Source of the DNA: Nitrosomonas communis
GTDB taxonomy: Bacteria > Pseudomonadota > Gammaproteobacteria > Burkholderiales > Nitrosomonadaceae
DNA length: 64,000 bases
Direction of reading: 5' to 3'
NCBI RefSeq assembly: GCF_024102715.1
Contig: NZ_JAGFJM010000009.1
Location: 4,041 to 68,040, forward strand
Shown: in pieces, positions 12,292-61,005 of the stretch
Layout of the letters: each line of letters begins with the position of its first letter
How positions within the stretch are numbered: the stretch's first letter is position 1
The notes under the pieces: model-generated
The model's input: only the letters and a program-made list of their open reading frames with translations
What the model was told of the DNA's origin: nothing
Database searches by the model: none
Translations under genes and position numbers: made by a program

Positions 12292-12369
12292 CCAATCACA
12301 AACCAAAAGTACTCCATCCATTAAGCTCAGAGTATCAGTCACTCAATTTATACTGCACACATGATCTAA

Positions 12370-15133: not shown

Positions 15134-18322
<3,189 letters not shown>

Positions 18323-27288: not shown

Positions 27289-27534
27289 ATGGAAAATACA
27301 GATATAGAGCAACGCATCAAAAAAATTGTAGCTGAACAATTAGGTGTAAATGAAGCAGATGTCAAAAATGAATCTTCTTTTGTTAATGATTTAGGTGCTG
27401 ATTCGCTTGATACCGTAGAACTTGTCATGGCGCTGGAAGAGGAATTTGAATGCGAAATTCCTGACGAACAGGCCGAAAAAATTAATACTGTACAAGAAGC
27501 GATTGACTACGTTAATCAGCATACTTCTCACTAA
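27289..27534 (+). CDS. acpP: Acyl carrier protein
   Basis: [20 protein letters not shown]. Confidence 0.98.
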
Positions 27535-29876: not shown

Positions 29877-32492
29877 ATGATGCAGTTTTCCGTCGTTGTC
29901 CCCACTCTTAACGAATCAGAAAATGTGGATTTGCTGTTAACGCGCTTGCTTGCGCTTGATTTGTTACCAGGAAGTTTCGAAGTTATTTTTGTTGATGATG
30001 GCTCAAAGGATGGCACGCCAGAAAAAATACGTAGATGGGAAGCAAAGCATAAAAACATTCATCTTGTCGAGCGGCAGGAAAAGCCTGATCTGACGGCATC
30101 AATTCTAGCAGGCGCCTCTATCGCCAAGAGCGACATTATCGTTGTAATGGATGCAGATCTAAGTCATTTGCCTGAGCAGTTACCTGCTGTCGTTGCACCA
30201 GTACTCAATGGTAATTATGATGTTGCTGTAGGTAGTCGTTACATCTCAGGAGGAAGCACAAAAGGGTGGCCTCTGCATCGACAGTGGCTGTCGCGTATGG
30301 GCGGCCTGCTTGCACGCCCTATTTGTGATGTGAATGATGCTACTTCAGGTTTTTTTGCATTTCGTCGGGAGCTTATCAGCAATATCCCTGAAAAAGCCCG
30401 CGGATACAAAATTCTGCTTGAGTTGCTAATGTCAGGTCAAGAGAAGCTTAGAGTCATAGAAGTACCCATTTCCTTTCACGACCGAACATATGGCACCTCG
30501 AAATTATCTCTTTCCCATCACTTGATTTATCTGCAACGACTGATCACTCTGGCTGGCGGCACAGTATCTATCGGCACAGCCAGTCGTTTTGCTCTTGTCG
30601 GTTTTGCAGGTATTTTTGTCGATGCCTTGGTATTCCAATGGATGCTAAGCTGGAGCTCTGGGCTCGCATTAGCTCATATTACGAGTTTTTTAGCAGCCGT
30701 TATTGTAAATTATACCCTTAACTCTAAATGGTCATTCCGACCATACAGTGGAGGCAATCTAACTTGGCAACAGTTTAGCCGGTTTCTGATAGTTGGATTA
30801 TTTGCGTTGCTTCTGCGCGGCGGCGTACTGGCGTTACTTGTCTATACTTGGCACTTACCGGCTGAACTGGCAATATTTCCCGCAATTGCTGCAACAGCAG
30901 TAGTTAATTATCTAGGCTCGGCATTTTATGTATTCCCGGAAAATAAAAACCGCCCATCGCTGGAAATACGCTGGCGAATAGCTGCACTTGGAGTTGTTCT
31001 TTTTATCATCTTGCTGCGCCTCGTTTATCTTGGTCTGGCCCAACTCATTCCTGACGAGGCCTATTATTGGCAATACACTCAACACATGGATTTGAGTTTC
31101 TTCGATCATCCCCCAATGGTAGCTTGGCTAATCTGGCTAGGTACCACAATTGCAGGTCAAAATGAATTTGGTGTCAGAATCGGCGCCTTTATCTGCGGTT
31201 TGATAACAATGAGCTACCTCTACGCATTTGCACGCAATCTACATGATAAATCAACAGGTATGCGCGCAATCATGCTGCTATCTGTGCTGCCTTTTGGCTT
31301 TGCTTCTGGATTAATCATGACTCCTGATGCACCATTGATTGCTTGCTGGGCTGCTACTTTATACTATATGGAACGTGCGCTTGTGGTTGGACGAAGCATA
31401 GCGTGGCTTGGTATGGGGATTGCTTTTGGTCTAGGCTTATTATCAAAATATACACTTGGCTTATTGGGCATTGCGGCTTTAGTCTTTGTTATCCTGGATC
31501 CAACTGCACGCCGCTGGTTGCGTCGGCCTCACCCCTATTTTTCAGCGCTTCTGGCCCTCTTACTGTTCTCACCCGTGATCATCTGGAATTCTGAGAATAA
31601 CTGGGTTTCTTTCTTATTTCAAACTGAAAGACTGGGAGGAGGCGGGCATGTATTCTCCGTTCATTATCTGATCCTTTATATGGCTATCATTCTGACACCG
31701 GTAGGTTTATACGCCGCCATGCAGGCGTTAAGACATGTTTGCACTAAGGGTAATCATTATGATGAATGCGAGTGTAGGCGCCGCTTGTTTGTATGTATAT
31801 TTACCGGTGTTCCATTAATAATTTTTATGGGTATCAGTACCTTTGATACACCACGATTTCACTGGACCAGCCCTCTCTGGCTAGCAATTCTGCCAACTAT
31901 CGCCTGGATGATGGGACAAAGCGGTACCTTACATGCTATCTCCAGCCGCCTGCGAGCAATATGGCAACCAACCATTATTATTTCGTTACTTGCGTATGCC
32001 TTCCTACTCCATTATGTGGTACTGGGTATCCCTGGAATACCATATCAGTTTCTCACTGAACATTATTTCTGGAAAGAGGCAACCAGTGAGGTTGAAAAAA
32101 TAGCCGAAGAACTCGGATCTCAGACAGGACAAGCACCCATTGTAGTAGGAATGAGTAAGTGGTCAATTGCAAGCGCATTATCTTTTTACAATAAGGGCAG
32201 CAACAAAATAGATATCCGCTCGCGAAACATGTTTGGCGACAATAGTGCTATGTACGATTTCTGGTATCCATCGCACCCACCTACTGACCGCCCGATTATT
32301 TTAGTGGGAATGAAACGTCATATGCTTGAACGTAATCGGACTGGAAGCGAAATTGATCACATGCTTGACCAGCCAGGCACCGTGCAGTTCAAAACAATAA
32401 CACGAAACGGTACGCCTTTGCGTCGTTTATACTACCGGACTGCACAAGGATACCATGGCAACGCGATCTCAAATCTCACCAGAATCCAATAA
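29877..32492 (+). CDS. Fused polyprenol-phosphate glycosyltransferase (GT2) - GtrA - ArnT/PMT-type GT-C transferase
   Basis: aa about 1-225 DPM-synthase-like (VVPTLNE, VDDGSKDGT, MDADLSH, GSRY, DATSGF); aa about 235-355 GtrA-like (RFALVG, NYTLNSKWSF); from about aa 365 ArnT/PMT-like (PDEAYYW, FDHPPMVAW, SKYT). Confidence 0.85.
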   Translation: MMQFSVVVPTLNESENVDLLLTRLLALDLLPGSFEVIFVDDGSKDGTPEKIRRWEAKHKNIHLVERQEKPDLTASILAGASIAKSDIIVVMDADLSHLPEQLPAVVAPVLNGNYDVAVGSRYISGGSTKGWPLHRQWLSRMGGLLARPICDVNDATSGFFAFRRELISNIPEKARGYKILLELLMSGQEKLRVIEVPISFHDRTYGTSKLSLSHHLIYLQRLITLAGGTVSIGTASRFALVGFAGIFVDALVFQWMLSWSSGLALAHITSFLAAVIVNYTLNSKWSFRPYSGGNLTWQQFSRFLIVGLFALLLRGGVLALLVYTWHLPAELAIFPAIAATAVVNYLGSAFYVFPENKNRPSLEIRWRIAALGVVLFIILLRLVYLGLAQLIPDEAYYWQYTQHMDLSFFDHPPMVAWLIWLGTTIAGQNEFGVRIGAFICGLITMSYLYAFARNLHDKSTGMRAIMLLSVLPFGFASGLIMTPDAPLIACWAATLYYMERALVVGRSIAWLGMGIAFGLGLLSKYTLGLLGIAALVFVILDPTARRWLRRPHPYFSALLALLLFSPVIIWNSENNWVSFLFQTERLGGGGHVFSVHYLILYMAIILTPVGLYAAMQALRHVCTKGNHYDECECRRRLFVCIFTGVPLIIFMGISTFDTPRFHWTSPLWLAILPTIAWMMGQSGTLHAISSRLRAIWQPTIIISLLAYAFLLHYVVLGIPGIPYQFLTEHYFWKEATSEVEKIAEELGSQTGQAPIVVGMSKWSIASALSFYNKGSNKIDIRSRNMFGDNSAMYDFWYPSHPPTDRPIILVGMKRHMLERNRTGSEIDHMLDQPGTVQFKTITRNGTPLRRLYYRTAQGYHGNAISNLTRIQ

Positions 32493-34417: not shown

Positions 34418-35605
34418 TCACCGAGCAAGTGACGAATGCAACATGGTAAAAGTTCTACAAACGTGTTCGATTTGCTCAAAAGTGTGCGCTGCATTTACGC
34501 TGCAGCGCACCAATGATTTACCCTCAGGTGCAGCAGGAGGAAGAATCAAATTAACGTATATGCCATTCTCAAGCAAGCCATTCCATAAAGCCAATGCCTG
34601 CTGGGGATTATCTAATATAACTGCTACGACAGGCCCAGGCTCTGGACCAACCTGATATCCGAGCATCTTAAGATGCGAATAGAGCTGTCGTGCATTTCTC
34701 CAAAGCTGCTCACGTAATTTACTACCGTTTCGTAACAACCTCAAAGCCGCACGTGTTGCTGCAATGGTGGCCGGCGAAGGCGAAGCGGTAAAAATATAAG
34801 GATGACTAACATAACGCAACTGATCAAGCTGCGGATGATTACTGACACAATAGCCACCTACCCCACATAAACTTTTACTAAAGGTACCCGTAATAAAATC
34901 AACTTCATTGATGAGCCCAGTTTTTTCAACGAGGCCTTGTCCGGTTTCACCCAGAACACCGAGCGAATGAGCTTCATCCAGCAGTAACGTGCTGTTATAA
35001 GCATTTTTCAGGTTCACAATTTCCGCCAAAGACGCTTGATCACCCAACATACTATAAATACCTTCAACGATAATGAGCGTATTTCTGCTACGATCACCTA
35101 GTCGACGAAGACGTTTTTCTAAATCCACCATATCATTGTGCCGAAAGCGAATGATATCTGCTCCGCTTAGAATACATCCATCATAAATACTTGCATGGGA
35201 ATCGCCATCAATAAGCGCTACGTCACCCGCACCTATTAGGCCTGAGATCGTGCCAAGATTAGCTTGATAACCTGTGGTAAAAACGATACAGGAGCGGCAT
35301 TGGTAAAAATCGGCAAACTCTATCTCTAATGCGCGATGCCCTGAATAATTTCCATTTGCCATTCGAGAGCCTGTGGTACCCGTTCCTTCCTTATCGATTG
35401 CTTCATGCGCCGCTTCCCGACATTCCGGTGCAAAACTAAGTCCCAAGTAATTATTAGTACCAAGAAGCAAAATATGACGATCACCAATCCTTGCTTCTGT
35501 TGGAGAATAGATTTCTTCTATGGGTATTCCAAAAGCACTTAACCCAGTTGGCAATTGCGCCTTCCTGGCGGCAGCGGCTGCATCAAGCTTCTCTAGTAAA
35601 TTCAT
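34418..35605 (-). CDS. spt: Serine palmitoyltransferase (alpha-oxoamine synthase family)
   Basis: GTNNYLGL, GSRMANG, HASIYDG, DEAHSLG, PLP lysine in GTFSKS; operon with ACP and FAAL. Confidence 0.85.
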   Translation of the reverse strand: MNLLEKLDAAAAARKAQLPTGLSAFGIPIEEIYSPTEARIGDRHILLLGTNNYLGLSFAPECREAAHEAIDKEGTGTTGSRMANGNYSGHRALEIEFADFYQCRSCIVFTTGYQANLGTISGLIGAGDVALIDGDSHASIYDGCILSGADIIRFRHNDMVDLEKRLRRLGDRSRNTLIIVEGIYSMLGDQASLAEIVNLKNAYNSTLLLDEAHSLGVLGETGQGLVEKTGLINEVDFITGTFSKSLCGVGGYCVSNHPQLDQLRYVSHPYIFTASPSPATIAATRAALRLLRNGSKLREQLWRNARQLYSHLKMLGYQVGPEPGPVVAVILDNPQQALALWNGLLENGIYVNLILPPAAPEGKSLVRCSVNAAHTFEQIEHVCRTFTMLHSSLAR

Positions 35606-35859
35606 TTTGGAACCGCCTTGATTCTGTAAATCAAATTAGCAAGATCACGAACAGTAAGTACATCTGCAAGTGCGTTTAATGGTATAGAAATATCAAAGTT
35701 GTCCTCTAGCTCCATGATAAGATTCAATAATTTTATGGAATCAATCGCTAGTTGAGTAATGAGATTTGTTTCTGGTGTAATTTCAAGCTCTGCATTCGCA
35801 AAACTCGCCAGACGTTCACATAATAAATGCAGAATATCTTCTTGCTTAATTTCTACCAT
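35602..35859 (-). CDS. Specialised acyl carrier protein for SPT
   Basis: LAIDSIKLLNLIMELEDNFDISIP (phosphopantetheine Ser); overlaps the spt start by 4 bp. Confidence 0.9.
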   Translation of the reverse strand: MVEIKQEDILHLLCERLASFANAELEITPETNLITQLAIDSIKLLNLIMELEDNFDISIPLNALADVLTVRDLANLIYRIKAVPK

Positions 35860-35874
35860 TCGTTAATTAAAAAA

Positions 35875-36795
35875 TCAGAGTTTTATCAATTGTGGCAATG
35901 TATCACAGAGGCGAAAATTAGGATACCAGCATACTAGATCTCGCCTCAAAGGCGTAATATCGCACACCCAGTCAGGGTATTGTAATTCGCGTACTTTTCC
36001 TGGAGTTAACATTGGTGAATAGTTTAATAATCGAGATGCCCACAAATTAATACTGGCAATTAATTGAAGCATGAATGCGGGCACTCTAATACATCTAACC
36101 GGCTTGCCTAAAATATCTTGTGCAATAGCTGCCACTAATTGATAGGTATAACCACCCGCTCTACCATCATCAAGTTCGAAGGTCCCTATAATGGGTTTAT
36201 CAATTTGCAACCAGCAATGAATTGCTGCTACCAAATCATTAACGTGCAGCAATCCAAAACGATTAGTCAAACGACCTACTGATGGTAGTACACCATAACA
36301 AGTTGCCTTAAAAAGTGGCTGCAGCTCTTTATCACCTGGGCCATACACAGCCGCTGGACGGAAAATAGTGCATGACATCTTGTGCGAGCAATCATTAATC
36401 AGTTGCTCAGCTTTGAATTTACTCGTTGCATACCATGAAAGTTCAGGGTTTCTTGCAGCGAGCGAAGATATAAAAAGGAAACGTGGTTTAGAGTTCTGTT
36501 CAAAGGCTGCCTGCAGCAGATTACCTGTACCTGTTACGTTATTATGCAAAAAACTTCCCAGAGAGCTACCTCTTACCGCACCCGCACAGTGTATAACTGC
36601 GTATACTCCCCCAACAAGCTTTTGTAGCGCTGCATGATTATCTAAATCCCCATATATCCACTCTAGGTTTTCTCGCTTCGCAGTCGAGAACTGCCGAGTT
36701 AATGCGCGTACTTTCCAGCCATTTTCCAGCAGCGCATCAAGCAATGCTCGACCGATAAACCCAGTGGCGCCTGTTATTGCCACCACTCGTGACAT
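35875..36795 (-). CDS. NAD-dependent epimerase/dehydratase-type SDR, putative ceramide reductase (CerR-like)
   Basis: TGATGFIG, SSLAA, YATSK (YxxxK), VYGPGD; sits between FAAL and ACP as in the known sphingolipid locus. Confidence 0.75.
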   Translation of the reverse strand: MSRVVAITGATGFIGRALLDALLENGWKVRALTRQFSTAKRENLEWIYGDLDNHAALQKLVGGVYAVIHCAGAVRGSSLGSFLHNNVTGTGNLLQAAFEQNSKPRFLFISSLAARNPELSWYATSKFKAEQLINDCSHKMSCTIFRPAAVYGPGDKELQPLFKATCYGVLPSVGRLTNRFGLLHVNDLVAAIHCWLQIDKPIIGTFELDDGRAGGYTYQLVAAIAQDILGKPVRCIRVPAFMLQLIASINLWASRLLNYSPMLTPGKVRELQYPDWVCDITPLRRDLVCWYPNFRLCDTLPQLIKL

Positions 36796-36801
36796 TTAAG
36801 A

Positions 36802-38631
36802 TTATCTGTCTCCAGACTGAACTGCAGATATCTGATCAGTTATGTTTGCACGTTGAAGAAACCCTTGGCGTGCGGCAAAGCGCGACAGCTTACCCGATGA
36901 TGTTCTCGGCAACGTATGAGGCGGCACCAGCTCAACCAGACAATTAACACCAAAAGCCATATAAACCATCTGCTGCAGCCGACTCATCAGAGACTGTCTC
37001 TCCTCCACAGAAGCTAAACGGCACTCAACAACCAATACGACAATAGTCGTATCATCAGATCCATTAATCCCAAAAGCCGATGCTTCACGCGATCTGACTT
37101 CCGGCTGTTGCTCTGCAAGCTCTTCTATATCTTGAGCGCGAATATTTCGACCATTAACAATAATCACATCAGTACGGCGCCCTGTAATATACAAATCGCC
37201 ACCGAGAATAAACCCAATATCGCCTGTATCAAGCCACCCTCCCGGCTTTAATGCTTTATTAGTTTCTTCCTGATTATTAAAGTATCCGGTCATAATACTC
37301 TTTCCTTGGACCAGAACACTACCAATCATCATCTGAGGCAACTCCTCTCCATTATCATCAACAATCTTAACTGTATGATCAGGAAGTGGGCGGCCGCAAT
37401 TGACAAACTCATTAAATTTCCTACCTGCTGCTTGTACCCGTACCGCCATTTTCTTTTCAACCAGCGTTTTAGTATCAACTTGCAAACTCGTTGCACCCTG
37501 GTTAATTTTCGAAAAAGAAACTGCAAGCGTAGATTCTGCTAAACCATAGCATGGTAAAAAAGCACGTTCATCAAAGCCTGCTGCAGAAAATTTATCTGCA
37601 AAATTTCTTAAAATATCTGGCCGGATCATTTCGGCTCCAATTCCCGCTGCACGCCAACAGCTCAGATCAAGCTCCTTCAGATCTGACTCACGTACTCTTA
37701 ATGCGCAAAGCTTAAGTCCAAACGGTTGACTAAAAGCAACGGTACAACGGTTGCGGCTAATTAATCTTAGCCACTGCAGAGGTCTAATAGCAAAATCTCG
37801 GGTTGCCAAATAATCCACTGAGAGCTGGGCAGCCATTGGCGACAGTACAAGACCTACCAAACCCATATCATGATAAAACGGAAGCCAAGAAGCGCAACGA
37901 TCGTTAGCGTGCACTTCTAATCCATTGCGCACTATCCCCTGAAGATTACACATCAAAGCTCGTTCTGTTATAACGACACCGCGGGGCATTCGTGTACTAC
38001 CTGAAGTAAATTGTAAATAGGCGGTCTCTTCCGGAGAATTGGGCTGTAAAGCCACCTCAGCTTCTGGAAGCATATCAAGCTGACTTGGTGTACCCACCCA
38101 TTGTAAGCAATTGGTGCTTAAACCTTCTACTGCTTCTTCAAGAAATCCAACAAAATCGAGATTAGCTATTGCAATACTTGCCTGACTACTTTCAAGCATA
38201 CCTCGCAGCTGCCGAACATATATTGCGTGACTGCCAAGATTAACGGGTATTGGCATTGCAAAAGGTACTAGTCCTGCATAGCGACATGCAAAAAATAACA
38301 CAATAAACTCAGGTGTTGTATCAGCAATTAACGCCACCCGATCGCCGCGCACGAGCCCCAAGCTAGATAAACGGCGAGCAATCACACGCGCATTCTGCTT
38401 AAGTAAATTATAGGAAAGTACCGATCGCAACTCTCCCTTTGCATCGTAAAAATTATATCCTGTCGCCCCGTCTGCCGCATACTCCAGTGCGTCAGTCAGC
38501 GTATCAAAATCTGCTAACCGCTGAGTTAGCGTATTAGCAGTAGGTGTCGCTGCCATTGACAATTTGCTTGAAGGCTGAGTATCAGATTCTTGCATTAGCG
38601 GATCCCCCAGCGTAATTATTGTCGAACTCAA
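36802..38631 (-). CDS. Fatty acyl-AMP ligase / acyl-ACP synthetase
   Basis: YLQFTSGSTRMPRGV, SWLPFYHDMGL, CYGLAESTL, DTGD, PRTSSGK. The true start may be ATG 38595. Confidence 0.9.
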   Translation of the reverse strand: MSSTIITLGDPLMQESDTQPSSKLSMAATPTANTLTQRLADFDTLTDALEYAADGATGYNFYDAKGELRSVLSYNLLKQNARVIARRLSSLGLVRGDRVALIADTTPEFIVLFFACRYAGLVPFAMPIPVNLGSHAIYVRQLRGMLESSQASIAIANLDFVGFLEEAVEGLSTNCLQWVGTPSQLDMLPEAEVALQPNSPEETAYLQFTSGSTRMPRGVVITERALMCNLQGIVRNGLEVHANDRCASWLPFYHDMGLVGLVLSPMAAQLSVDYLATRDFAIRPLQWLRLISRNRCTVAFSQPFGLKLCALRVRESDLKELDLSCWRAAGIGAEMIRPDILRNFADKFSAAGFDERAFLPCYGLAESTLAVSFSKINQGATSLQVDTKTLVEKKMAVRVQAAGRKFNEFVNCGRPLPDHTVKIVDDNGEELPQMMIGSVLVQGKSIMTGYFNNQEETNKALKPGGWLDTGDIGFILGGDLYITGRRTDVIIVNGRNIRAQDIEELAEQQPEVRSREASAFGINGSDDTTIVVLVVECRLASVEERQSLMSRLQQMVYMAFGVNCLVELVPPHTLPRTSSGKLSRFAARQGFLQRANITDQISAVQSGDR

Positions 38632-39258
38632 GATCTTCCCCTCGAAGTAATGGTGCTGGTCATCTTATTCTAAAACCATTTTAACGCAATAATCCCCAAA
38701 GACACTTTTTATCAATGCGTTAGATAATCATCCATACGCTTCTATTTTTCGTTGCTTATTAAACACAACTGTCTCATATTCGTTGACGAAGGAGCTTATA
38801 GTAAGGGTGATTTCTCTGTCAAGGTTATATTGATCATCTGTTGTTTTATAACAACAGTCATGTTATTGATTCGATCACACCAACCTTGCTTGAAACCATA
38901 TTGCTCCTAATGGCAACCAGATAAAACACATTTATCTCAACTGACCACCCAGTAGCGCTATCAGCAAAGCGGCTCTAGTACCCCAGAAATCTCTAAAGTT
39001 AAAACTCTCTCACCAATTCTTTGATCCCCTTCTCAGAAGAAATAATGCCTTGCCCCGACAGGAGTCAACTCAACAATTCTTCACATAGCTCTGTTAACAG
39101 ATCAGATTAATGCTTTATATTCAGTTTGGCTGATAAAATCACTGCAATAAACCATGACATGGTATATCCCATGCTAACAACGAATAACAATAAGAAATCA
39201 ATCAATCTCGTGATCTTTCTTTTCGGTACATTTTAAAACATTTACCTTGACATCGCCC

Positions 39259-39711
39259 ATGTCCAAACTGCTGCTATTTGGTTACGGTAATCCAAGCCGT
39301 GGTGATGACGCGCTTGGTGTCAATCTTATCGATCGCATAACATTATTACGCTTTAATCGCGTTGAATGCCAAAGTGATATGCAGCTTCAAATTGAGCATG
39401 TGACAGATTTGATTAATTGCGATCAGGTATTGTTTATCGATGCAGATCTGTCTTGCGCGGAACCTTATGTTTATTCTAAAGTGGTGGCGGCAAAAGACGG
39501 CAGCTATACGACACATGCCATGACACCATCCGCTCTGTTACACGTGTATCAAGAAGTGTATGGATGCGCTGCACCACCATCTTTTCTACTAAGGATTCGC
39601 GGCTACCATTTTGGACTCGACACTGCACTAAGTATCAAAGCAACGGTCAATCTTGAAGTAGCGGTAGCGCTGACCAGCAGATTATGTAAAATTGGTAATC
39701 TCGAAATCTGA
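39259..39711 (+). CDS. [NiFe]-hydrogenase maturation protease (HyaD/HoxW family)
   Basis: GYGNPSRGDDALG, VLFIDA, TTHAMTP. The ORF opens at TTG 39247; ATG 39259 preferred. Confidence 0.88.
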   Translation: MSKLLLFGYGNPSRGDDALGVNLIDRITLLRFNRVECQSDMQLQIEHVTDLINCDQVLFIDADLSCAEPYVYSKVVAAKDGSYTTHAMTPSALLHVYQEVYGCAAPPSFLLRIRGYHFGLDTALSIKATVNLEVAVALTSRLCKIGNLEI

Positions 39712-42032: not shown

Positions 42033-42548
42033 TCAACGCGACCAGTTCACTCGCAGCAAGTTTTCTTCTGGATTGTAGTGAAACTCGAGCTCACCCTGAT
42101 AGGAATGATGAATCGACTCACCCATCCCGCGAGCAAGATGAATATCCGTCGTAGTAATCAATGTGGAATCAGCTTTTTCTTCAACCTCCATGATCCGCTT
42201 GAGGGGGTGTTCTGCACGCTGATGTTTTTCCTCATTATGCACAAGATGCATGATCTCATCGCGATGCGCTAAAAAGAATGCTCCCTCCAGAGTCAAAAAA
42301 CCAGCAGGAAAATGATCATGGATGCGATGGCAGGCGGGACAGACTTCTTGATGCGCGTTAGCCGGTGTAGCCAGCCACTGCCAGCGTCCCTGATGATAAA
42401 CCGCATTACACTGCGGACATACGGTCGGTTCAGGTAACTTACTTTTGGCTTTATAAGCATCATGCACTTTTTCCTGAAAAATACCATCATGGCGAGTAAT
42501 CGTATGATAGCCCGCAGGAATTTTGGAATACCCTTTAGAATGACTCAT
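42033..42548 (-). CDS. BCAM0308-family (NMD3-like, two CxxC) protein
   Basis: HDAY, EPTVCPQC, GRWQW, CPACHRI, HPLKRIM, TTTDIHLARG. AAGGAG RBS before ATG 42548; the ORF extends to 42611. Confidence 0.75.
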   Translation of the reverse strand: MSHSKGYSKIPAGYHTITRHDGIFQEKVHDAYKAKSKLPEPTVCPQCNAVYHQGRWQWLATPANAHQEVCPACHRIHDHFPAGFLTLEGAFFLAHRDEIMHLVHNEEKHQRAEHPLKRIMEVEEKADSTLITTTDIHLARGMGESIHHSYQGELEFHYNPEENLLRVNWSR

Positions 42549-42787
42549 AGCACATATCTCCTTTAATAAACATGAAATATAAGCATCATGACTTGATTTA
42601 AGAAGGCTCAAAATTCAATGTAGCACATGACTGCTTACTGAGTAATCAAAACTACGAATCCTGCTTTCTCAAGTTTCATATCCTACCTGTCTTTTAAATG
42701 ATTAACCAGATTACCATTACAAAATCAATCACCAGTTAGTTATTTAAGCGTATGATTTGAGTAGCCGACAGAAAGAAGGAGAAGGAA

Positions 42788-43414: not shown

Positions 43415-44053
43415 TTATTTTAGCATACTGAAATGTTGAGCAAACCAGTCTGCCGCATGACTCGCAACCTGTTCTAGTGTGCCAGGCTCCTCAAATAAAT
43501 GAGTCGCCTCCGCTATCAAGGTAAGCTGCTTTTTGCAGTTCAATAAAGCATAGGCCTGTTGATTCAATTCAATCACGCCAAAATCAGCACCACCAACCAA
43601 CAGCAAAGTGGGTGCAGTTACTTGCCTTAAAGCTTGCTCTCCAGCAAGATCAGGGCGTCCGCCGCGTGATACGACAGCAGCAATTTTATTGCCTAATTCT
43701 GCCGCAGCCTGCAGTGCTGCAGCTGCCCCTGTGCTGGCACCAAAATACCCCACTTGTAGTGATTGCATCTTCGACTCACCTTGCAACCATGACGTTGCTG
43801 CAAGCAAACGCCGTGTGAGTAATTCGATATCAAAGCGTGTGGCATAATCCCGATCTTCCTCCTGTGTCAGTAGGTCAAACAGCAGCGTGCCTATACCACG
43901 ATCCCTTAACACGTCAGCGACATAGGTATTACGCGGACTAAAGCGGCTACTGCCGCTACCATGAGCGAATAATACGATACCTGTTGCTGAAGCAGGCAAC
44001 ATCAATTCACCGCCTAGGCGGGCAGCACCATCCTGAATAAATATCGCACTCAT
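43415..44053 (-). CDS. Dienelactone-hydrolase-like alpha/beta hydrolase
   Basis: FAHGSGSSRFSPRN, nucleophile elbow GASTG, GGAD, ATHLFEE. AGGAG RBS; ATG 44053 overlaps the radical SAM stop (ATGA). Confidence 0.88.
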   Translation of the reverse strand: MSAIFIQDGAARLGGELMLPASATGIVLFAHGSGSSRFSPRNTYVADVLRDRGIGTLLFDLLTQEEDRDYATRFDIELLTRRLLAATSWLQGESKMQSLQVGYFGASTGAAAALQAAAELGNKIAAVVSRGGRPDLAGEQALRQVTAPTLLLVGGADFGVIELNQQAYALLNCKKQLTLIAEATHLFEEPGTLEQVASHAADWFAQHFSMLK

Positions 44054-45147
44054 ATTAAATCTCCTATAGCTACTGGAATACGCCACCTGCCAAATATTTC
44101 GGCATGTTCACCAAAGCGCCCGGCAATGACGGCATCACAATCGGGACAATGACTGTTGGTCGTCAGACGATATTGTGCAATCTCATACCAGTCACGCTCA
44201 ATCACGGTTGCACCGCATGATGGACAAAAAGTGGTATCACCTTCACGGTTATGCACGTTTCCTGTATAAACGTATTTGAGTCCTGCCGTTTGGGCAATTT
44301 TCCGCGCCCGAATCAGGGTACTCGCTGGAGTAGCCGGTATGTCAATCATCTTGTAGTCGGGATGAAATGCTGAAAAGTGTATCGGCACTTCCACACCAAG
44401 TTCCCTCGCTACCCATTCGCTCAGCGCCTCTAGTTCTTCGGTAGAATCATTGCACCCAGGAATTAATAATGTTGTTATTTCAAACCATACCTGTGTTTCA
44501 TGTTTGAGATATTTCAATGTCTCAAGCACCGGCTGTAAGTGCGCGCCGGTTTGCTTGACATAAAACTCTTCAGTAAATGCTTTTAGATCGACATTGGCCG
44601 CATCCATCTTGGCAAAGAAATCGCGTCGGGGCTCAGCATGGATATAGCCTGCTGTGACTGCCACGGTCTTGATATTCCGTGCATGGCACGCATCAGCCAC
44701 ATCCATGGCGTATTCTGCAAAAATAACTGGGTCGTTATAGGTAAACGCGACACTTTTGCAACCCAAACGTTCAGCGGTACGTGCAATAGCATCTGGACTT
44801 GCCTGCTCAGCCAGCTTGTCGAAACTGCGTGATTTGGAAATATCCCAGTTCTGGCAGAATTTGCAAGCAAGATTGCAACCCGCTGTGCCAAAAGACAAAA
44901 TACTGCTGCCCGGATAAAAGTGGTTCAATGGCTTTTTCTCGATCGGATCCACACAGAAACCGGAAGAACGACCATAGGTCGTCAGCACCATTTCATCACC
45001 TGCCCGGCCCCGTACAAAGCACGCACCGCGCTGCCCTTCATGCAATTTGCAATCGCGTGGACACAAGTCACACTGGATACGCCCATCACTCAGCCAATGC
45101 CAGTATCTGGCCGGATTTCGTTCTGCATTGCTAATTGGTTGATCCAT
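44050..45147 (-). CDS. amrS: AmmeMemoRadiSam system radical SAM enzyme
   Basis: CDLCPRDC, DPIEKKPLNHF, GCNLACKFCQNWDIS (CxxxCxxC), TYNDP, NVDLKAF, C-terminal CPSCG/CPDC. Confidence 0.93.
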   Translation of the reverse strand: MDQPISNAERNPARYWHWLSDGRIQCDLCPRDCKLHEGQRGACFVRGRAGDEMVLTTYGRSSGFCVDPIEKKPLNHFYPGSSILSFGTAGCNLACKFCQNWDISKSRSFDKLAEQASPDAIARTAERLGCKSVAFTYNDPVIFAEYAMDVADACHARNIKTVAVTAGYIHAEPRRDFFAKMDAANVDLKAFTEEFYVKQTGAHLQPVLETLKYLKHETQVWFEITTLLIPGCNDSTEELEALSEWVARELGVEVPIHFSAFHPDYKMIDIPATPASTLIRARKIAQTAGLKYVYTGNVHNREGDTTFCPSCGATVIERDWYEIAQYRLTTNSHCPDCDAVIAGRFGEHAEIFGRWRIPVAIGDLI

Positions 45148-45718
45148 TTGGATACTCCTCTACAACATCAATTTCATGCCATTTGGTAACGGTATAGCGC
45201 GACAGTTTGATTCCTTCTGCCCAGAAATCTGCAGGCAATCCAGCCTTTCGCTTCAATAAGGCCAGAAACAGTCGAGGTTGCGAAAGCTCCTGCCATACTT
45301 GCGGCAAAAAGGTGCTGCGATAATAGCCATATTCAAGCACGATGCCATCTATACCTGGCCGCAACTGCGCAAGCGCATCTGTTTCATCCCGCACATCCAT
45401 TGCCCACACCGGCGATAGCACTGAAATTTCGATTTCAATATCATCAAACTCAGCAGTGCGCAAAGGTGCAAAACGCGGATCATGTAAAGCAGCAGAAACC
45501 GCATTGCATTTGACATCCATTAGCAATGATTGTTGCGCCTGAAGTGAGCCGATGCAACCACGCAACTGTCCCTCCTGCATGAGCGTGACAAAACACGCGC
45601 CCAATTCTTGCAACCATGGCACGCGCTCATCAGCATCCGATTGATAAGCGACATTTAAAGCAGAGGCAATCGCCGCCCGCCCAATCGACAATAACTCCTT
45701 TCCTTGATCAACCCGCAT
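45131..45718 (-). CDS. amrA: AmmeMemoRadiSam system protein A (AMMECR1 domain)
   Basis: GACFVTL, LRGCIGS, DPRF, EISVLS, TFLPQVW. ATG 45718 preferred; the ORF extends to 45769. Confidence 0.92.
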   Translation of the reverse strand: MRVDQGKELLSIGRAAIASALNVAYQSDADERVPWLQELGACFVTLMQEGQLRGCIGSLQAQQSLLMDVKCNAVSAALHDPRFAPLRTAEFDDIEIEISVLSPVWAMDVRDETDALAQLRPGIDGIVLEYGYYRSTFLPQVWQELSQPRLFLALLKRKAGLPADFWAEGIKLSRYTVTKWHEIDVVEEYPNGSTN

Positions 45719-46529
45719 ATCCAGCGCTCTTTGAGGACAAATTAGACAATGTAAAAGCAAACGCGCCATAACCTACTACCTGATCGCGTGAACCCGCTGT
45801 ATCACCTGAGTTGCGCAAATCCAGCAGATGTGGCGTCAACTGATGCTTGCGCACCGTCGCAATCAGACCATTAATAGGCGTTGCCCCACAAGCCTGCTTG
45901 TGATCAATGAATTGGCGTAATTGAAGAATGGATAGAGCAGTCTCATTATCTTCGCGTTGCGCGAGACCATAGGGTAAATAGTGGGAAAGATCGGAACTGA
46001 TGATAATCAATGTTTCCTCCCCTCCCCATAAGCAGTCCAATACCGCGGCAACCTCTTCAGCGGAGGCCATTCCCACGACCAATGGCAAGATCGAAAAATC
46101 CGTTAAGATACTTTGCAAGAAAGGTAACTGCACCTCCAGTGAATGCTCCAGCACATGGGCTCGCGCATTGATTGCCAGTTGTGGCAGGTGTGCAACTTTA
46201 CCGATGCTAACGGTATCCACCGTCACCGTGCCCAAGGGGGTAGCAAAAGCATCTACACCTGGCAATGCCAGACCACGCACTGCAACCCTGTGTGCAGGAC
46301 CCAGCAAGATGACATGCCGGATACGCTGAGCAAAAGGATAAAGTGTGGCATATGCGGATGCTGCAACCGCACCCGAATAGATATAGCCCGCATGCGGCAC
46401 AATTAATGCTTTGGGTATTGATTTATGCGCCTGTGCAACGCGCAACAATTGCTTGATACTTTCAGTCAGTTGCTGAGCATCAGCTGAATAAAATAGCCCC
46501 GCTACCGCAGGATGACGGACAGTAACCAT
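45708..46529 (-). CDS. amrB: AmmeMemoRadiSam system protein B (MEMO1 family)
   Basis: PAVAGLFY, PHAGYIYSG, EHSLEVQLPFL, SSDLSHY, ACG, VVGY. Confidence 0.93.
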   Translation of the reverse strand: MVTVRHPAVAGLFYSADAQQLTESIKQLLRVAQAHKSIPKALIVPHAGYIYSGAVAASAYATLYPFAQRIRHVILLGPAHRVAVRGLALPGVDAFATPLGTVTVDTVSIGKVAHLPQLAINARAHVLEHSLEVQLPFLQSILTDFSILPLVVGMASAEEVAAVLDCLWGGEETLIIISSDLSHYLPYGLAQREDNETALSILQLRQFIDHKQACGATPINGLIATVRKHQLTPHLLDLRNSGDTAGSRDQVVGYGAFAFTLSNLSSKSAGYAG

Positions 46530-55590: not shown

Positions 55591-56406
55591 CTAGTAGGTT
55601 ACCATGCAAATATCAGTATAGGACGCTTCCTTCCGACAACTACATATCGATTTAAAAGCCTCGATATTTGCCGGCCAAATTCTGCCGTTATCAGTCGCAA
55701 GTTCCCAGATATCATGATGATTTGCGTGCAATCTCTCCAGCACGTCAAGCAAGCAAACATAATAAGGACGGCGCTCACCATAGTAATCCACTATTGGTCC
55801 AATAGGATTAAATTGCATGCCATAAAAACTAAATAACCTATTCAGAGCAGGATCCATTGCTGAAAACAAGTGGTAAATATCATATTTGGCACACAATTGA
55901 ATAATACCGATCGCCAACCCCAACATGGGATGTGGGAAGCGCCTGCGCCTACCTACATCTGACTGCCTTGGAATCTTGTTAACCGTAAAATCGAGATCAT
56001 TCTTTCGCCTGAAAAAATCACTAAGAATACCAAATCTAGAAATTTCAACTGCTTGCTTGCGTGGCACATTCAAATCTGCATATGCCGGGTAAAATTGAGT
56101 ATGTAATTCGACCGGAAATTTTTGCTCAATATCTGAGGAATTAGAACAAATCAAACGGGTAGTCCCCACAAATGTATTGGATGGTCTGTGCCTTAATAGT
56201 AAATGCAAAGAACGGTCATCATATTCATCACGCTCCAACTCGTCAGGATAACTTGTCGCATCGACATTTGGATATTTATTTTCAATACATAAAATCCGGT
56301 ATCTTAGATTAAATACATTTTCTAGTAATGATGGCGTGTCAGCAAAAACGACTTCGAAGTATTCATGAAATGCTGCAGTGATATCATTCATGACGATCCT
56401 TGGCAA
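55591..56406 (-). CDS. PEP-CTERM/exosortase-associated acyltransferase (LuxI/FeeM-like GNAT fold)
   Basis: LRYRILC, LERDEYDD, GTTRL, VEISRF, AMDPAL, GERRPY; divergent from prsK. Alternative ATG at 56391. Confidence 0.85.
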   Translation of the reverse strand: MPRIVMNDITAAFHEYFEVVFADTPSLLENVFNLRYRILCIENKYPNVDATSYPDELERDEYDDRSLHLLLRHRPSNTFVGTTRLICSNSSDIEQKFPVELHTQFYPAYADLNVPRKQAVEISRFGILSDFFRRKNDLDFTVNKIPRQSDVGRRRRFPHPMLGLAIGIIQLCAKYDIYHLFSAMDPALNRLFSFYGMQFNPIGPIVDYYGERRPYYVCLLDVLERLHANHHDIWELATDNGRIWPANIEAFKSICSCRKEASYTDICMVTY

Positions 56407-57181
56407 CCAAGCTGGTTAAATTCCCGGCAAATAATTAATTGAGCTCATTTTACCGCTCAGCATTCAACTCAAATCAATGAAATGGTTTGAAGTCTTCCTT
56501 TATTTCAAAGGAATCAACATTCGTTAGAGAATCTAGAACTATCTCATATAAAAAACTCCAGCCCGCTATATTCTTTAAAAATAAGAAAGTTAAAAGTATA
56601 AATACTATCGTTTTTTCAAACGCATTTAATCAGTTTTTGTTAAAACCTTATTCTTTGATGTTATTTATAATAATTGTCGCCAAAACACGACGAATTATTA
56701 TATTCGCCGAAACTATCATGAAATGATGAAAAAATATATAAAAAGAAAACACAACAAGAAAATTGAGTGGCACAAAATCAGAATGAATAATCCTATGTGA
56801 CTTTAAAACATTTAGACTGTTTGCAAATAATGCTTGCAATAATTTGTGTTTTTAAATAATCCCCCTGAGAAATTCTCACGACTCACATCAATATTGACGT
56901 TGTAGATGTAGTAAAAATGAAATTGACCAGCATTGAGAACAGAGGAATTCCAAGCTCAGTTGATGACAGATTTGCACTAGCAAAGGCCTATTCTCAATAA
57001 AACGGATGAAATGATCATGGAGCACAAGTCTGATAGCCGTATGCATTCTCGACAGGATATACAACCGAGAAACCGCAATATGTAAGAAATACAGCTTATT
57101 TCTTGGTCTCATCATAATAAACATGTAAGTATTGTTCTTTTAGATAAAAGTGGTGGATAAAAATCGAGTATTACTTCTATT

Positions 57182-59278
57182 ATGTTGACAACCATTACGG
57201 CAGCTAGTTATGCCACCGCAGCCGTGGCCTATTTTTTCTTATTTGTTCTTTTGCTGACGAACTGGCGCAACCGCCTATGTGGATTGCTGCTGGCAGTTGC
57301 CTGCCTGGTTTCTGTTTTCTGGACTGCAGCTATCGTAGGTCAATCACACTGGGGCTACCCGTCTCCTTTGTTGATACGAGTCCTGGAAATTTTCCGCAAT
57401 GCAGGCTGGTCCATATTCTTGATTGCGGTACTGAGTCCTTTTCAGCAGAGGAAAGAAGATTCTGCCTCTCTGAGCATAAGGTCAGTCATTGCAACAATTG
57501 CGGCGCTTTATCTTATTTTTTTCGCACTTGCTCTTTTTGTGAATAGTAGCAATGGCGCAGAATTCACCACACATGGGCTGCCTGACTCTTACAGCAATTT
57601 CTTTACCGGTGTGCTAATGGCTGTAATTGGCATGATTCTCGTTGAACAGTATTACAGGAATACGCTACCTGAACAACGCTGGGGAATAAAGTTCATCTGC
57701 TTAGGAATAGGAGGTATTTTTGTATATGATTTTTACTTATTTAGTGATGCGCTCTTGTTCAGAAAAATAAACAATGACATATGGATTGCTAGAGGGTGGG
57801 TAAATACTTTGGTTGTTCCTTTGATAGCGTTCTCAGCTGCACGCAAGCCAAAGTGGTCTGAAGGCATTTCATTATCACGGCATGTTCTATTCTATTCGTC
57901 TACCTTATTGGGTGCAGCCATCTACTTGCTTGTTATGGCAACTGTCGGCTACTACTTAAGGCTTTCTGGAGGGGCGTGGGGAACAGTTCTACAGCTGACT
58001 TTCTTATTTGGCGCAATTGTACTACTGATAATTTTACTATTTTCCGGCACTACTCGCTCATGGCTTAAAGTATTCATTAGTAAACATTTTTATAATTATA
58101 ACTATGATTACCGGGAAGAATGGTTGCGCTTTACCCGCACTCTTTCGGAGGGTGAACTTGAATTAAGAGCACGCGCAATCAAAGCGCTTGCTCAATTAGT
58201 GGAAAGTCCTGCTGGTGGACTATGGTTTAAACAGGAAAATGGAAGATATCAATTAATCGCATGTTGGAATATTTTTCTAGAAAATAAAATTGTCAAAGAT
58301 GACGACAAGCTTTGTCTATTCTTGAAAGAAAAAGCATGGGTTATCGATTTACGGGAATATTGCTTGGATCCCAAAAAATACTCTGCTTTGATATTGCCGG
58401 ATTGGTTATCTGATATTCCAAAATCCAGATTGATCGTGCCATTAATCTTGCATAGAGAATTGCTCGGATTTGTCGTATTGATCGAGCCCAGGAGTACTAT
58501 CAACTTAAATTGGGAGGTTAGGGATTTATTGCGGGTAGCAGGCACGCAGGTAGCAAGTTATTTGGCACAATACGAAGCTACCAATGCGCTCTCAATTGCA
58601 CGCCAATTCGAATCTTTCAATCGCATGTCAACTTTCATCGTGCATGACATCAAGAATCTGATTTTTCAATTATCTTTATTGCTTTCGAATGCTGAGAAGC
58701 ATAAAGATAATCCGGAATTTCAGAAAGATATGATTGAAACGGTAAATTTTTCGGTAAATAAAATGAAACGATTACTCGAAAAGTTAAGTAATGGCAGTCA
58801 ATCGGAAAAGCAGGAGGTACTTAACCTTGATCAATTATTACAGCAAATCATCGAGAGAAATTCCTTCAATATGCCAAGACCTGCGCTTGAAATTATTGAT
58901 TCCGGTCTGATGGTAGAAGCTAATTATCCTCGGCTTGAGCGAGTAATCAGCCATCTGGTTCAGAATGCGATTGAGGCCACCCCTAAAAATGGTCAGGTTT
59001 GGGTCCGACTCGCAAGAAAGGATAATTCTGCTGTAATAATAATCAAAGACACAGGTCATGGCATGAGTGAGCAATTTATTCAGAAAAAGCTTTTTGAGCC
59101 TTTTGAATCTACTAAAACAGCTGGTATGGGTATCGGTGTTTTCGAGAGCAAGGAATATATTAACGAGCTCGGAGGACAACTAGATGTTAATAGCCAGGAA
59201 TCAGTAGGAACAACTTTCTCGATTATTCTGCCGCTTTTTCAACACTATCAGGAAAATAAAGTTGCCTCTCAAGATTAA
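57182..59278 (+). CDS. prsK: PEP-CTERM (exosortase A) system histidine kinase
   Basis: Multi-TM N-terminus, YDYREEWL, GAF-like region, FIVHDIKN H-box, QNAIEA, DTGHGM, GMGIG. Confidence 0.92.
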   Translation: MLTTITAASYATAAVAYFFLFVLLLTNWRNRLCGLLLAVACLVSVFWTAAIVGQSHWGYPSPLLIRVLEIFRNAGWSIFLIAVLSPFQQRKEDSASLSIRSVIATIAALYLIFFALALFVNSSNGAEFTTHGLPDSYSNFFTGVLMAVIGMILVEQYYRNTLPEQRWGIKFICLGIGGIFVYDFYLFSDALLFRKINNDIWIARGWVNTLVVPLIAFSAARKPKWSEGISLSRHVLFYSSTLLGAAIYLLVMATVGYYLRLSGGAWGTVLQLTFLFGAIVLLIILLFSGTTRSWLKVFISKHFYNYNYDYREEWLRFTRTLSEGELELRARAIKALAQLVESPAGGLWFKQENGRYQLIACWNIFLENKIVKDDDKLCLFLKEKAWVIDLREYCLDPKKYSALILPDWLSDIPKSRLIVPLILHRELLGFVVLIEPRSTINLNWEVRDLLRVAGTQVASYLAQYEATNALSIARQFESFNRMSTFIVHDIKNLIFQLSLLLSNAEKHKDNPEFQKDMIETVNFSVNKMKRLLEKLSNGSQSEKQEVLNLDQLLQQIIERNSFNMPRPALEIIDSGLMVEANYPRLERVISHLVQNAIEATPKNGQVWVRLARKDNSAVIIIKDTGHGMSEQFIQKKLFEPFESTKTAGMGIGVFESKEYINELGGQLDVNSQESVGTTFSIILPLFQHYQENKVASQD

Positions 59279-59483
59279 ATGTACTTTGTTATATCCTGTT
59301 TCGCGTTCATTCTGATAGATTACGCATAAAACTTGGTTTGCTATCATGCATACTGGCTTTCGGAAAAATATTTTTAATTTACCCAGCAAAATGTCAATAT
59401 AGGCTTCTGATTTTTTATACATTTTAGTATCTGCAAGATACCCCAGCAAATTTAGTTAATATGTCGAAACGTAATGTAAAAAG

Positions 59484-60842
59484 ATGAAGGTAAATAGTAG
59501 CCAAAAAAAATTACTCGTGATCGAAGATGATCCCGGTTTACAAAAACAATTACGCTGGAGTTTTGATGATTACGAAGTTTTCGTAGCAGCGGATCGCGAA
59601 AGTGCGCTGGCACAAGTGCGCCGACATGAGCCTGCGGTTGTAACAATGGATCTTGGTTTGCCGCCAGATCCTGATGGTGCGTCGGAAGGGTTGGCTACCT
59701 TACAGCAGATCCTCGCGCTTGCGCCTGATACCAAAGTAATTGTTCTGACAGGTAATCAGAATCATGCAAATGCCTTGAAGGCAATTGAATTAGGTGCATA
59801 TGATTTTTATCAAAAGCCTTATGATCCCAAAATGTTAAGTCTAATCGTTGATAGAGCCTTTTATTTGTATAGTCTGCAACGTGAAAATCGTAGCCTTTTA
59901 CTATCTCATTTGGATTCTCCCATTTCAGGAATTATCACACGCGATCCGGACATGATTAAAATGTGCCGCAACATTGAAAGAGTTGCGACTTCAGATGCAA
60001 CAGTTATGTTGCTAGGCGAAAGCGGCACAGGCAAAGAAGTTTTGGCCAGAGCGCTCCACCAGTTGAGCAGCCGGAAAGAAGCACGCTTCATCGCGATTAA
60101 TTGTGCTGCTATCCCTGAGACATTACTCGAAAGTGAGTTGTTTGGTTACGAGAAAGGAGCTTTTACTGGTGCAGTTAAGCAAACGCTAGGTAAAATTGAG
60201 TTAGCCCAAGGTGGTACTTTCTTTCTGGACGAAGTAGGTGATTTACCGATATCGTTGCAGGCAAAACTACTTCGTTTTCTGCAGGAAAGAGTGATTGAGC
60301 GAATTGGAGGGCGGGAAGAAATTTCTGTCGATGTGCGCGTTGTTTGTGCAACCCATCGGAATCTCAAAAAACTAATTGAAGAAGGCTGTTTTCGTGAGGA
60401 CTTGTTTTATCGTTTAGGTGAAATTTCCATTAAGATTCCCCCTCTGCGCAACCGAGTAGGCGATGCAGTACTACTGGCACATCATTTCAAAAATAAGTTT
60501 TCTGCAAAAGAAGGACGTCAGCCGCTGAGTTTCAGCCAGGAAGCGCTGGCCGCAATTGAAGCTCACCAATGGCCGGGTAATGTCCGGGAAATGGAAAATT
60601 GCATAAAACGCGCTGTGATCATGACGGAAGGGCCGCAGATTAGCGCAGATGATTTGGGGCTTCAAGAGTCGGAAATCCCGACAGAACCAATGAATTTACG
60701 GGAAGTACGTGAACGAGAAGAATGCAAGGCCCTAGTTAGGGCGCTAGCAAAGGTAGATGGTAATATTGCAAAAGCAGCGGAATTGCTCGGCGTTAGCCGA
60801 CCGACTTTATATGATCTGATGAACCGGCACGGCCTCAAATAA
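59484..60842 (+). CDS. prsR: PEP-CTERM sigma-54 response regulator
   Basis: Receiver (EDD, MDLGLPP), GESGTGKE, GAFTGA, WPGNVRE, Fis-type HTH GVSRPTLY. Confidence 0.93.
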   Translation: MKVNSSQKKLLVIEDDPGLQKQLRWSFDDYEVFVAADRESALAQVRRHEPAVVTMDLGLPPDPDGASEGLATLQQILALAPDTKVIVLTGNQNHANALKAIELGAYDFYQKPYDPKMLSLIVDRAFYLYSLQRENRSLLLSHLDSPISGIITRDPDMIKMCRNIERVATSDATVMLLGESGTGKEVLARALHQLSSRKEARFIAINCAAIPETLLESELFGYEKGAFTGAVKQTLGKIELAQGGTFFLDEVGDLPISLQAKLLRFLQERVIERIGGREEISVDVRVVCATHRNLKKLIEEGCFREDLFYRLGEISIKIPPLRNRVGDAVLLAHHFKNKFSAKEGRQPLSFSQEALAAIEAHQWPGNVREMENCIKRAVIMTEGPQISADDLGLQESEIPTEPMNLREVREREECKALVRALAKVDGNIAKAAELLGVSRPTLYDLMNRHGLK

Positions 60843-61005
60843 GCGCCGCCCTGACATCGGTTATTTTAAGATGATTGACAAGTTACTCATTATTCTTGAA
60901 TTTTTAAAGCTCACTGGTGGATCGGTAAATGCCTCGCCTTTAGGTGAAGGATACTAAGACTACACGCATGCAAACCGCCGGCTTTTAACCGCTAGCGCAT
61001 TCACA

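Follow-up and report, generated by a model that had tools for sequence, protein, structure and literature searches.

Whether an ammonia-oxidizing Nitrosomonas makes sphingolipids is the question raised by four genes on the minus strand of the 64-kb stretch of DNA analyzed here, which is referred to as the window. We consider it highly probable that these four genes represent the Nitrosomonas form of aasR-cerR-acpR-spt, the ceramide operon of proteobacteria (also called "rhodobacterial"). The operon is already known, having been published for N. eutropha and experimentally defined in Caulobacter and E. coli. Added here are its conservation as a core locus, the wide occurrence of a second cluster headed by bacterial ceramide synthase (bCerS), and the very probable presence of both in the uncultured species from which the window is derived.

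The four-gene operon and its products

Four open reading frames (ORFs) fill positions 34418-38631 of the window, and an intergenic region precedes them:

36802..38631, minus strand: aasR, fatty acyl-AMP ligase (FAAL), 609 aa with a TTG start at 38631, or alternatively 597 aa with an ATG start at 38595
35875..36795, minus strand: cerR (epi), NDUFA9-like extended short-chain dehydrogenase/reductase (SDR), predicted ceramide reductase, 306 aa, assigned from Pfam, motifs, and gene position
35602..35859, minus strand: acpR, dedicated acyl carrier protein (ACP), 85 aa, its stop overlapping the spt start by 4 bp
34418..35605, minus strand: spt, serine palmitoyltransferase (SPT), a pyridoxal phosphate (PLP)-dependent alpha-oxoamine synthase (AOS), 395 aa, NF047599 equivalog
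38632..39246, minus strand: upstream intergenic region of 615 bp, probable location of the operon promoter by sequence reading

A first-pass annotation of this DNA had described FAAL, SDR, ACP, and AOS genes in this order, with gaps of 6 bp and 15 bp and then a 4-bp overlap; the overlapping bases are ATGA. The coordinates in the ORF list and the Pfam domains (AMP-binding in FAAL; Epimerase/3Beta_HSD/NmrA in the SDR; PP-binding in the ACP; Aminotran_1_2 in the AOS enzyme) confirmed this description. The likeness to Caulobacter that it had pointed out also held, as the order is that of CC_1165-CC_1162 and also that of the E. coli cluster. Such spacing suggests an arrangement consistent with translational coupling. 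On identical metagenome contigs, the FAAL was called at 609 or 597 aa depending on the gene caller.

The AOS enzyme scored 583.7 bits on NCBIfam NF047599, the SPT equivalog of the E. coli/betaproteobacterial type (cutoff 500), on which the E. coli SPT scored 597 bits. Its scores on the models of other AOS enzymes were below their cutoffs (bioF 330.8, cutoff 426; KBL 308.7, cutoff 460; ALAS 227.7, cutoff 338; CqsA 220, cutoff 428), as was its score of 433.8 on the alphaproteobacterial SPT equivalog NF047603 (cutoff 670). When PDB was searched with the window protein, SPTs ranked far ahead of KBL, AONS, ALAS, and CqsA: the S. wittichii SPT was matched at 1e-119 and that of S. paucimobilis at 5e-112, compared with 1e-62 for KBL, 1e-47 for AONS, and only 1e-53 for the cysteate-C-fatty acyltransferase 28eh. 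The window SPT was 53% identical to that of E. coli. The SPT-type motifs GSRMANG and GTFSKS, reported at first pass, were located at residues 79 and 240, respectively, with DSHASI at residue 135. Alignment with 2JGT and 2X8U showed that the PLP lysine Lys265 and His159, Asp231, His234, and Arg390 (S. paucimobilis numbering) are conserved.

Two substrate-site positions of the window SPT differ from those of Sphingomonas, Tyr73 being replaced by Asn and Arg378 by Leu. We take Arg378 of the S. paucimobilis SPT to be a contact of the serine carboxylate. These substitutions near the amino-acid site, and the existence of other specificities in the AOS family (28eh, KBL, and CqsA), would favor an enzyme that condenses glycine, alanine, or cysteate with acyl-AcpR into a 1-deoxy- or sulfono-type long-chain base. 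This is quite improbable. Asn73 and Leu378 are common to all Nitrosomonas homologues inspected and to the E. coli SPT, and the enzyme of E. coli BL21 turned L-[14C]serine into 3-oxo-sphinganine (PMC9386255). Because the serine-using E. coli SPT has the same residue, Arg378-to-Leu was rejected as a sign of changed amino-acid specificity, and both residues therefore mark a Sphingomonas-versus-other subgroup and not a change of substrate or of family membership. The model scores, above the cutoff for SPT and below the cutoffs for all other AOS enzymes, and the E-value of 1e-53 for the cysteate enzyme against 1e-119 for SPT also argue for serine. Formation of 3-oxo-sphinganine from L-serine and a long-chain acyl thioester has been demonstrated with the orthologues of E. 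coli, Caulobacter, and S. wittichii, and the BL21 enzyme strongly preferred palmitoyl-AcpR over palmitoyl-coenzyme A (CoA) or palmitoyl-AcpP (PMC9386255). The split between Asn/Leu and Tyr73/Arg378 enzymes coincides with NCBI's separate equivalog models NF047599 and NF047603, and might be linked to the preference for acyl-AcpR.

AasR scored 874 bits on NCBIfam NF006624, the fatty acyl-AMP ligase model (cutoff 600). Its closest solved structure was the E. coli FAAL 3PBK (E=5e-167), to which residues 32-592 aligned, nearly end to end. AasR was 47% identical to the FAAL of the E. coli cluster and 92% identical to the orthologue of N. communis Nm2, and its adenylation motifs (TSGSTRMPRG, YGLAE, TGD, and SSGK) were intact. 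Caulobacter CC_1165 acylates AcpR and not CoA, and it is only with the AasR of Caulobacter and that of E. coli that acylation of the cognate AcpR, and not of CoA or AcpP, has been demonstrated (PMC9386255). By orthology, the window AasR would likewise load a fatty acid onto AcpR. AcpR matched the Pfam PP-binding domain PF00550 at 3.5e-11, with the phosphopantetheine serine conserved in a DSI motif. It was 39% identical to the E. coli AcpR and only 25% identical to the housekeeping AcpP of the window (27289-27534), and on this comparison it is distinct from AcpP.

CerR contains GATGFIG at residue 9 (the GxxGxxG NAD site) and YATSK at residue 122 (YxxxK). Its best PDB relatives were NDUFA9 chains at about 1e-10, and homology to NDUFA9 has likewise been reported for the Caulobacter CerR (PMC11087976). 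The protein was 45% identical to the SDR of the E. coli cluster, and its gene sits between aasR and acpR, as in Caulobacter, E. coli, and N. eutropha. Genetic and lipidomic evidence for the ceramide-reductase role comes only from Caulobacter (PMC11087976). In the window CerR, as in the Caulobacter protein, the Rossmann motif is at the very start and a signal peptide is not evident, so that the question raised in print for Caulobacter, namely how the enzyme gets to the periplasm and where its reducing equivalents come from, applies to the window protein as well.

By its nearest relatives, the host is an uncultured species of the N. communis lineage from activated sludge or wastewater. The exact SPT sequence was found only on environmental assemblies, and a 65.9-kb environmental contig was 99.986% identical to the window. 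The nearest named SPTs were those of Nitrosomonas sp. Is37, Nm33, and Nm132 and of N. communis (92-93%), followed by the N. europaea/eutropha group (approximately 81%). DNA identity to N. communis Nm2 was 81.5% over 19.9 kb of synteny, and the host is therefore placed as a separate species of that lineage. It is this relatedness, rather than any amo or hao gene in the window, that supports the first-pass description of the organism as a probable ammonia oxidizer. The operon and approximately 10 kb downstream of it (pgeF, a ZIP transporter gene, a GT2-GtrA-PMT_2 fusion gene, mltG, fabF, acpP, fabG, fabD, and fabH) were syntenic in Nm2 and in an N. europaea-type genome (L009), and the operon was present in twenty metagenomes from activated sludge, wastewater, or soil. 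Judged by these comparisons, the operon is a conserved core locus in at least three Nitrosomonas lineages. NCBI annotation already names several of the Nitrosomonas homologues serine palmitoyltransferase.

Within the 615-bp spacer upstream of aasR, a putative promoter, TTGACA-16 nt-TATAAG, was found at 38795-38822 as a consensus match only; the promoter scanner passed over it, as its -10 hexamer ends in G. Promoter and terminator scans of the window gave results at or below shuffle expectation, and an Rfam search of the window gave zero matches. Of the sequence words sampled from the operon, at least 98% occurred in metatranscriptome assemblies from two studies; the contigs, of 9-34 kb, span both strands and intergenic DNA, and for that reason these assemblies allow no inference on expression level or co-transcription.

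Ceramide synthase and head-group genes of Nitrosomonas

No match was obtained in the 64-kb window by tblastn with E. coli YghO, the bCerS orthologue, or with all eight proteins of a Nitrosomonas bCerS/head-group cluster, in agreement with the first-pass view that such genes are absent from it. By this search bCerS, the missing N-ACYLTRANSFERASE, is absent from the window. The only other acyltransferase-like ORF, at 55591-56406, was rejected as bCerS, being the PEP-CTERM/exosortase-associated acyltransferase TIGR03694.

A homology search with E. coli YghO returned only enterobacterial proteins among its best 120 matches. Among 50%-representatives, the search gave 1076 clusters, the ten top representatives of which were from Deltaproteobacteria, Kiloniellales, or sequences without a name. 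A bCerS alignment scan with one genome per species yielded four Nitrosomonas loci, namely N. oligotropha Nm45 and three metagenome-assembled genomes (MAGs). The bCerS proteins of these loci were 46-50% identical to YghO. In all four loci bCerS stands at the head of a cluster, and the products of this cluster include proteins resembling a MobA nucleotidyltransferase, the permeases LptF and LptG, a CDP-alcohol phosphatidyltransferase, and a diacylglycerol (DAG) kinase. This cluster mirrors Neut_1100-1106 of N. eutropha, listed as cerS and head-group/transport genes (PMC11324152). A search seeded with Nitrosomonas bCerS gave more than 120 Nitrosomonas protein clusters, including those of N. ureae, Is79A3, and Nm84; this search returned only the oligotropha/ureae/Is79 lineage, and the N. 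communis lineage was not directly seen in it. All Nitrosomonas lineages sampled thus had bCerS (oligotropha, ureae, Is79A3, Nm84, MAGs, and N. eutropha, as Neut_1100), and by homology the bCerS/head-group/LptFG-like cluster is widespread in Nitrosomonas.

We aligned contigs of four metagenomes (X1, X2, X4, and X5) to the bCerS cluster of a reference Nitrosomonas locus (L043:9941-17329) at 80% stringency and to the window operon at 97%. The assembler depth of the window contig was 13.8, 13.0, 81.1, and 75.1 in X1, X2, X4, and X5, respectively. The most prominent bCerS-cluster contigs, approximately 80% identical to L043, had depths of 10.2, 37.2, 218.7, and 384.2 in the same order. This comparison of depth led us to reject these long contigs as those of the window organism; their mismatched depths, differing up to 5-fold, indicate that they come from another, more abundant Nitrosomonas. 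The same sludge and wastewater samples thus hold a second Nitrosomonas population, and they also contain minor third variants of the bCerS cluster.

A second bCerS contig was present in all four runs, with lengths of 9.1, 13.4, 9.8, and 17.0 kb and depths of 13.1, 12.2, 78.2, and 76.8, that is, 0.95, 0.94, 0.96, and 1.02 times the depth of the window contig. In each of the four runs it matched bCerS in two conserved blocks whose distance of 221 nt was kept and whose flanks were identical, and these flanks translate in frame (LIERGTHHVS and QSEFAELGH, compared with LVERGTRRIS and REEFDELGS in L043). Judging from summed depths at 12351-12447 and 17141-17191, the LptF-like gene and the final gene of the cluster are also matched by contigs of these depths, which makes it probable that the candidate contig follows the order of the cluster over approximately 6.8 kb. 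These results make it very likely that the window organism has an unlinked bCerS/head-group cluster. The first-pass annotation had expected N-acylation and head group to be supplied by "unlinked or novel" enzymes. Given the matching depth of the bCerS contig and the second cluster of Nitrosomonas, N-acylation is very likely unlinked and not novel. Looking for bCerS in the genome, as had been suggested at that stage, thus gave a co-abundant contig in four metagenomes and nothing within the window.

The absence of bCerS from the 64-kb window and the indirect link of bCerS to the host would also fit an operon that yields only a free long-chain base or a 3-oxo-sphinganine-like signal or metabolite, with no ceramide synthase and no ceramide membrane lipid. 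We regard such an outcome as very improbable, since bCerS occurs in every Nitrosomonas lineage sampled and a bCerS contig, probably collinear with the head-group/transport cluster, matches the depth of the window organism in four of four metagenomes. Moreover, given the published order of steps, cerR would make little sense in the operon without an N-acylated substrate.

Proposed pathway and its weighing

The enzymatic steps, their order, and the final lipid are modeled here on work in Caulobacter and E. coli. AasR would adenylate a free long-chain fatty acid and transfer it to the phosphopantetheine arm of AcpR, and SPT would condense acyl-AcpR with L-serine to 3-oxo-sphinganine and CO2. The unlinked cytoplasmic bCerS (YghO/CC_1154 family) would then add the second acyl chain by N-acylation, and CerR would reduce the 3-oxo group of the N-acylated intermediate to give dihydroceramide. 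In Caulobacter, the CerR step takes place on the periplasmic face of the inner membrane (PMC11087976). Most likely, the second unlinked cluster would add an anionic phospho head group and export the lipid to the outer membrane, its DAG-kinase-like protein being ceramide kinase-like.

The assignment of the four genes to the ceramide operon is carried by the observed gene content and orthology, the intact catalytic residues, the conservation in Nitrosomonas, and the co-abundant bCerS contig. Several points weigh against it. The pathway enzymes of Nitrosomonas are known from sequence alone, and we found no report of sphingolipids in any Nitrosomonas or other ammonia oxidizer in the searchable literature. 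The link between bCerS and the window organism is one of co-abundance and not of a shared contig. A single transcription unit for the four genes could not be demonstrated. CerR is not covered by a curated NCBIfam family model, and of the four proteins it shows the lowest conservation (identity of 78% with N. communis and 54% with the N. europaea type), and SPT departs from the Sphingomonas enzyme at the two substrate-site positions described above. As a separate observation, the CerR-like SDR evolves much faster than its partners, for which the corresponding identities are 92% and 81% (SPT) and 92% and 74% (FAAL).

FAAL-ACP-AOS triads are known from secondary-metabolite clusters, and the partial CqsA score of 220 bits could hint at the loading module of a natural-product or quorum-signal pathway (a CqsA-like alpha-hydroxyketone or a lipo-amino compound) with a superficial likeness to sphingolipid synthesis, but this is hardly credible, as that score is far under the cutoff of 428, domain and family annotation of the window revealed no polyketide synthase (PKS), nonribosomal peptide synthetase (NRPS), or tailoring genes flanking the operon, its neighbors are housekeeping genes (pgeF, the ZIP transporter gene, mltG, and fab genes), the locus belongs to the core of the genus, and the four proteins are 39-53% identical to their characterized E. 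coli cluster counterparts.

With the ceramide operon as the preferred reading, the production of sphingoid lipids by the window organism is a prediction from the genome, strong but short of demonstrated fact. We lean, with some reserve, toward the view that Nitrosomonas, including the window species, makes anionic phosphosphingolipids of the ceramide phosphoglycerate type as real envelope components. If so, these lipids could matter for outer-membrane stability, for tolerance of polymyxin and detergents, and for the organization of the extensive intracytoplasmic membranes. Sphingolipids are thus predicted for an entire guild of bacteria that is important in the environment and in industry. If nitrifiers of wastewater plants and soils do make them, these lipids would be candidate nitrifier biomarkers in environmental lipidomics and a variable in membrane-targeted inhibition of nitrification. 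The value for annotation is small, because the operon has been drawn for N. eutropha in two papers and the SPT has been named by NCBI. The ceramide prediction is likewise already in print for N. eutropha, and only chemistry and physiology would be new.

Neighboring genes and comparison with known systems

Other features of the window lie on both sides of the operon. Divergent from it, at 39247-39711 on the plus strand, is an orphan gene resembling hydrogenase maturation proteases (TIGR00072, 49 bits, just over the cutoff); no hydrogenase genes are nearby, and the gene is conserved in the same place in N. communis. At 29877-32492 on the plus strand, an 871-aa fusion protein combines a GT2 polyprenyl-phosphate glycosyltransferase, a GtrA-like flippase, and PMT_2/ArnT-like GT-C domains, and would represent a whole three-step relay of lipid-linked glycosyl transfer in one polypeptide. 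N. communis (862 aa) and the N. europaea-type genome (892 aa) have a counterpart of this fusion, likewise three genes downstream of spt. An AmmeMemoRadiSam-type trio of overlapping genes at 44050-46529 on the minus strand encodes a radical SAM protein, AMMECR1, and a Memo-like protein; beside it are a dienelactone-hydrolase-like gene and a BCAM0308-family protein at 42033-42611. The region 55591-63824 is an exosortase A/PEP-CTERM regulatory and accessory locus with the following genes:

55591-56406, minus strand: exosortase-associated acyltransferase TIGR03694
57182-59278: PrsK histidine kinase
59484-60842: PrsR sigma-54 regulator
61006-62592: exosortase-associated acyl-CoA ligase TIGR03098
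62589-63824: PLP decarboxylase TIGR03099

The SPTs of S. paucimobilis and S. wittichii (PDB 2JG2 and 2X8U) share the fold family and catalytic residues of the window SPT. Unlike the window SPT, they belong to equivalog NF047603 and have Tyr73 and Arg378, and in Sphingomonadaceae aasR is unlinked to acpR-spt.

The E. coli cluster yghO-FAAL-SDR-ACP-spt (ECD_02850-02854 in BL21; L007 in E2348/69) has the gene order of the window, with protein identities of 47% (FAAL), 45% (SDR), 39% (ACP), and 53% (SPT). Its SPT, which belongs to the same NCBIfam equivalog and has the same Asn73 and Leu378, has been assayed, as have its AcpR and AasR, and RefSeq annotates the last gene of the E2348/69 cluster as spt. 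In E2348/69, yghO is adjacent and divergent and LptF/G paralogues lie downstream, whereas neither is present in the window. Among complete E. coli genomes, spt was found at a coverage of at least 80% in 4093 of 5426, with at least 95% DNA identity in nearly all of those carrying the gene; having the sphingolipid cluster, which K-12 lacks, is thus the rule in this species. A compact and complete sphingolipid locus was also seen on an ENA contig (L010), in which bCerS is flanked on one side by FAAL, SDR, and an Sfp-type phosphopantetheinyl transferase and on the other by a nucleotidyltransferase, a metallophosphatase, DAG-kinase-like and Tam41-like proteins, LptF/G paralogues, and an ABC exporter. 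The Nitrosomonas and E. coli loci showed no counterpart of the dedicated phosphopantetheinyl transferase of this locus.

Caulobacter crescentus CC_1165-CC_1162 (aasR, cerR, acpR, and spt) is the experimentally defined reference, with the same gene order and biochemical logic as the window operon, and the species also has bcerS (CC_1154) and cpg head-group genes. All of these genes lie in one 17-gene region in Caulobacter, whereas in Nitrosomonas they are split between regions and orthologues of CC_1166-1168 and CC_1158 are missing. The proteins of N. eutropha and Caulobacter are 38-51% identical. Within the genus, the N. europaea-type genome, used as a stand-in for the europaea/eutropha group, has identities of approximately 81% (SPT), 74% (FAAL), 67% (ACP), and 54% (SDR) to the window proteins, and its upstream flank differs from that of the window.

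N. eutropha C91 is of a different lineage from the window host, which belongs to the N. communis group, and its published assignment is bioinformatic only. Padilla-Gomez et al. (2022) drew its operon as aasR (Neut_0458), epi (Neut_0459), acpR (Neut_0460), and spt (Neut_0461) (PMC9386255, Fig. 9), with AcpP as Neut_0467 and the N-acyltransferase gene cerS (Neut_1100) elsewhere in the genome. A 2024 PLoS Pathogens paper tabulated the N. eutropha orthologues of Caulobacter CC_1152-1168, and N. eutropha was predicted to make ceramide phosphoglycerate lipids (PMC11324152, Fig. 7, Table S2D). The acpP gene of N. eutropha is six genes away, which agrees with the window, where pgeF, the ZIP transporter gene, the glycosyltransferase fusion gene, mltG, and fabF lie between spt and acpP (27289-27534). 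N. eutropha C91 and the window thus share the genus, the four genes, their order, and their separation from cerS and the head-group genes.

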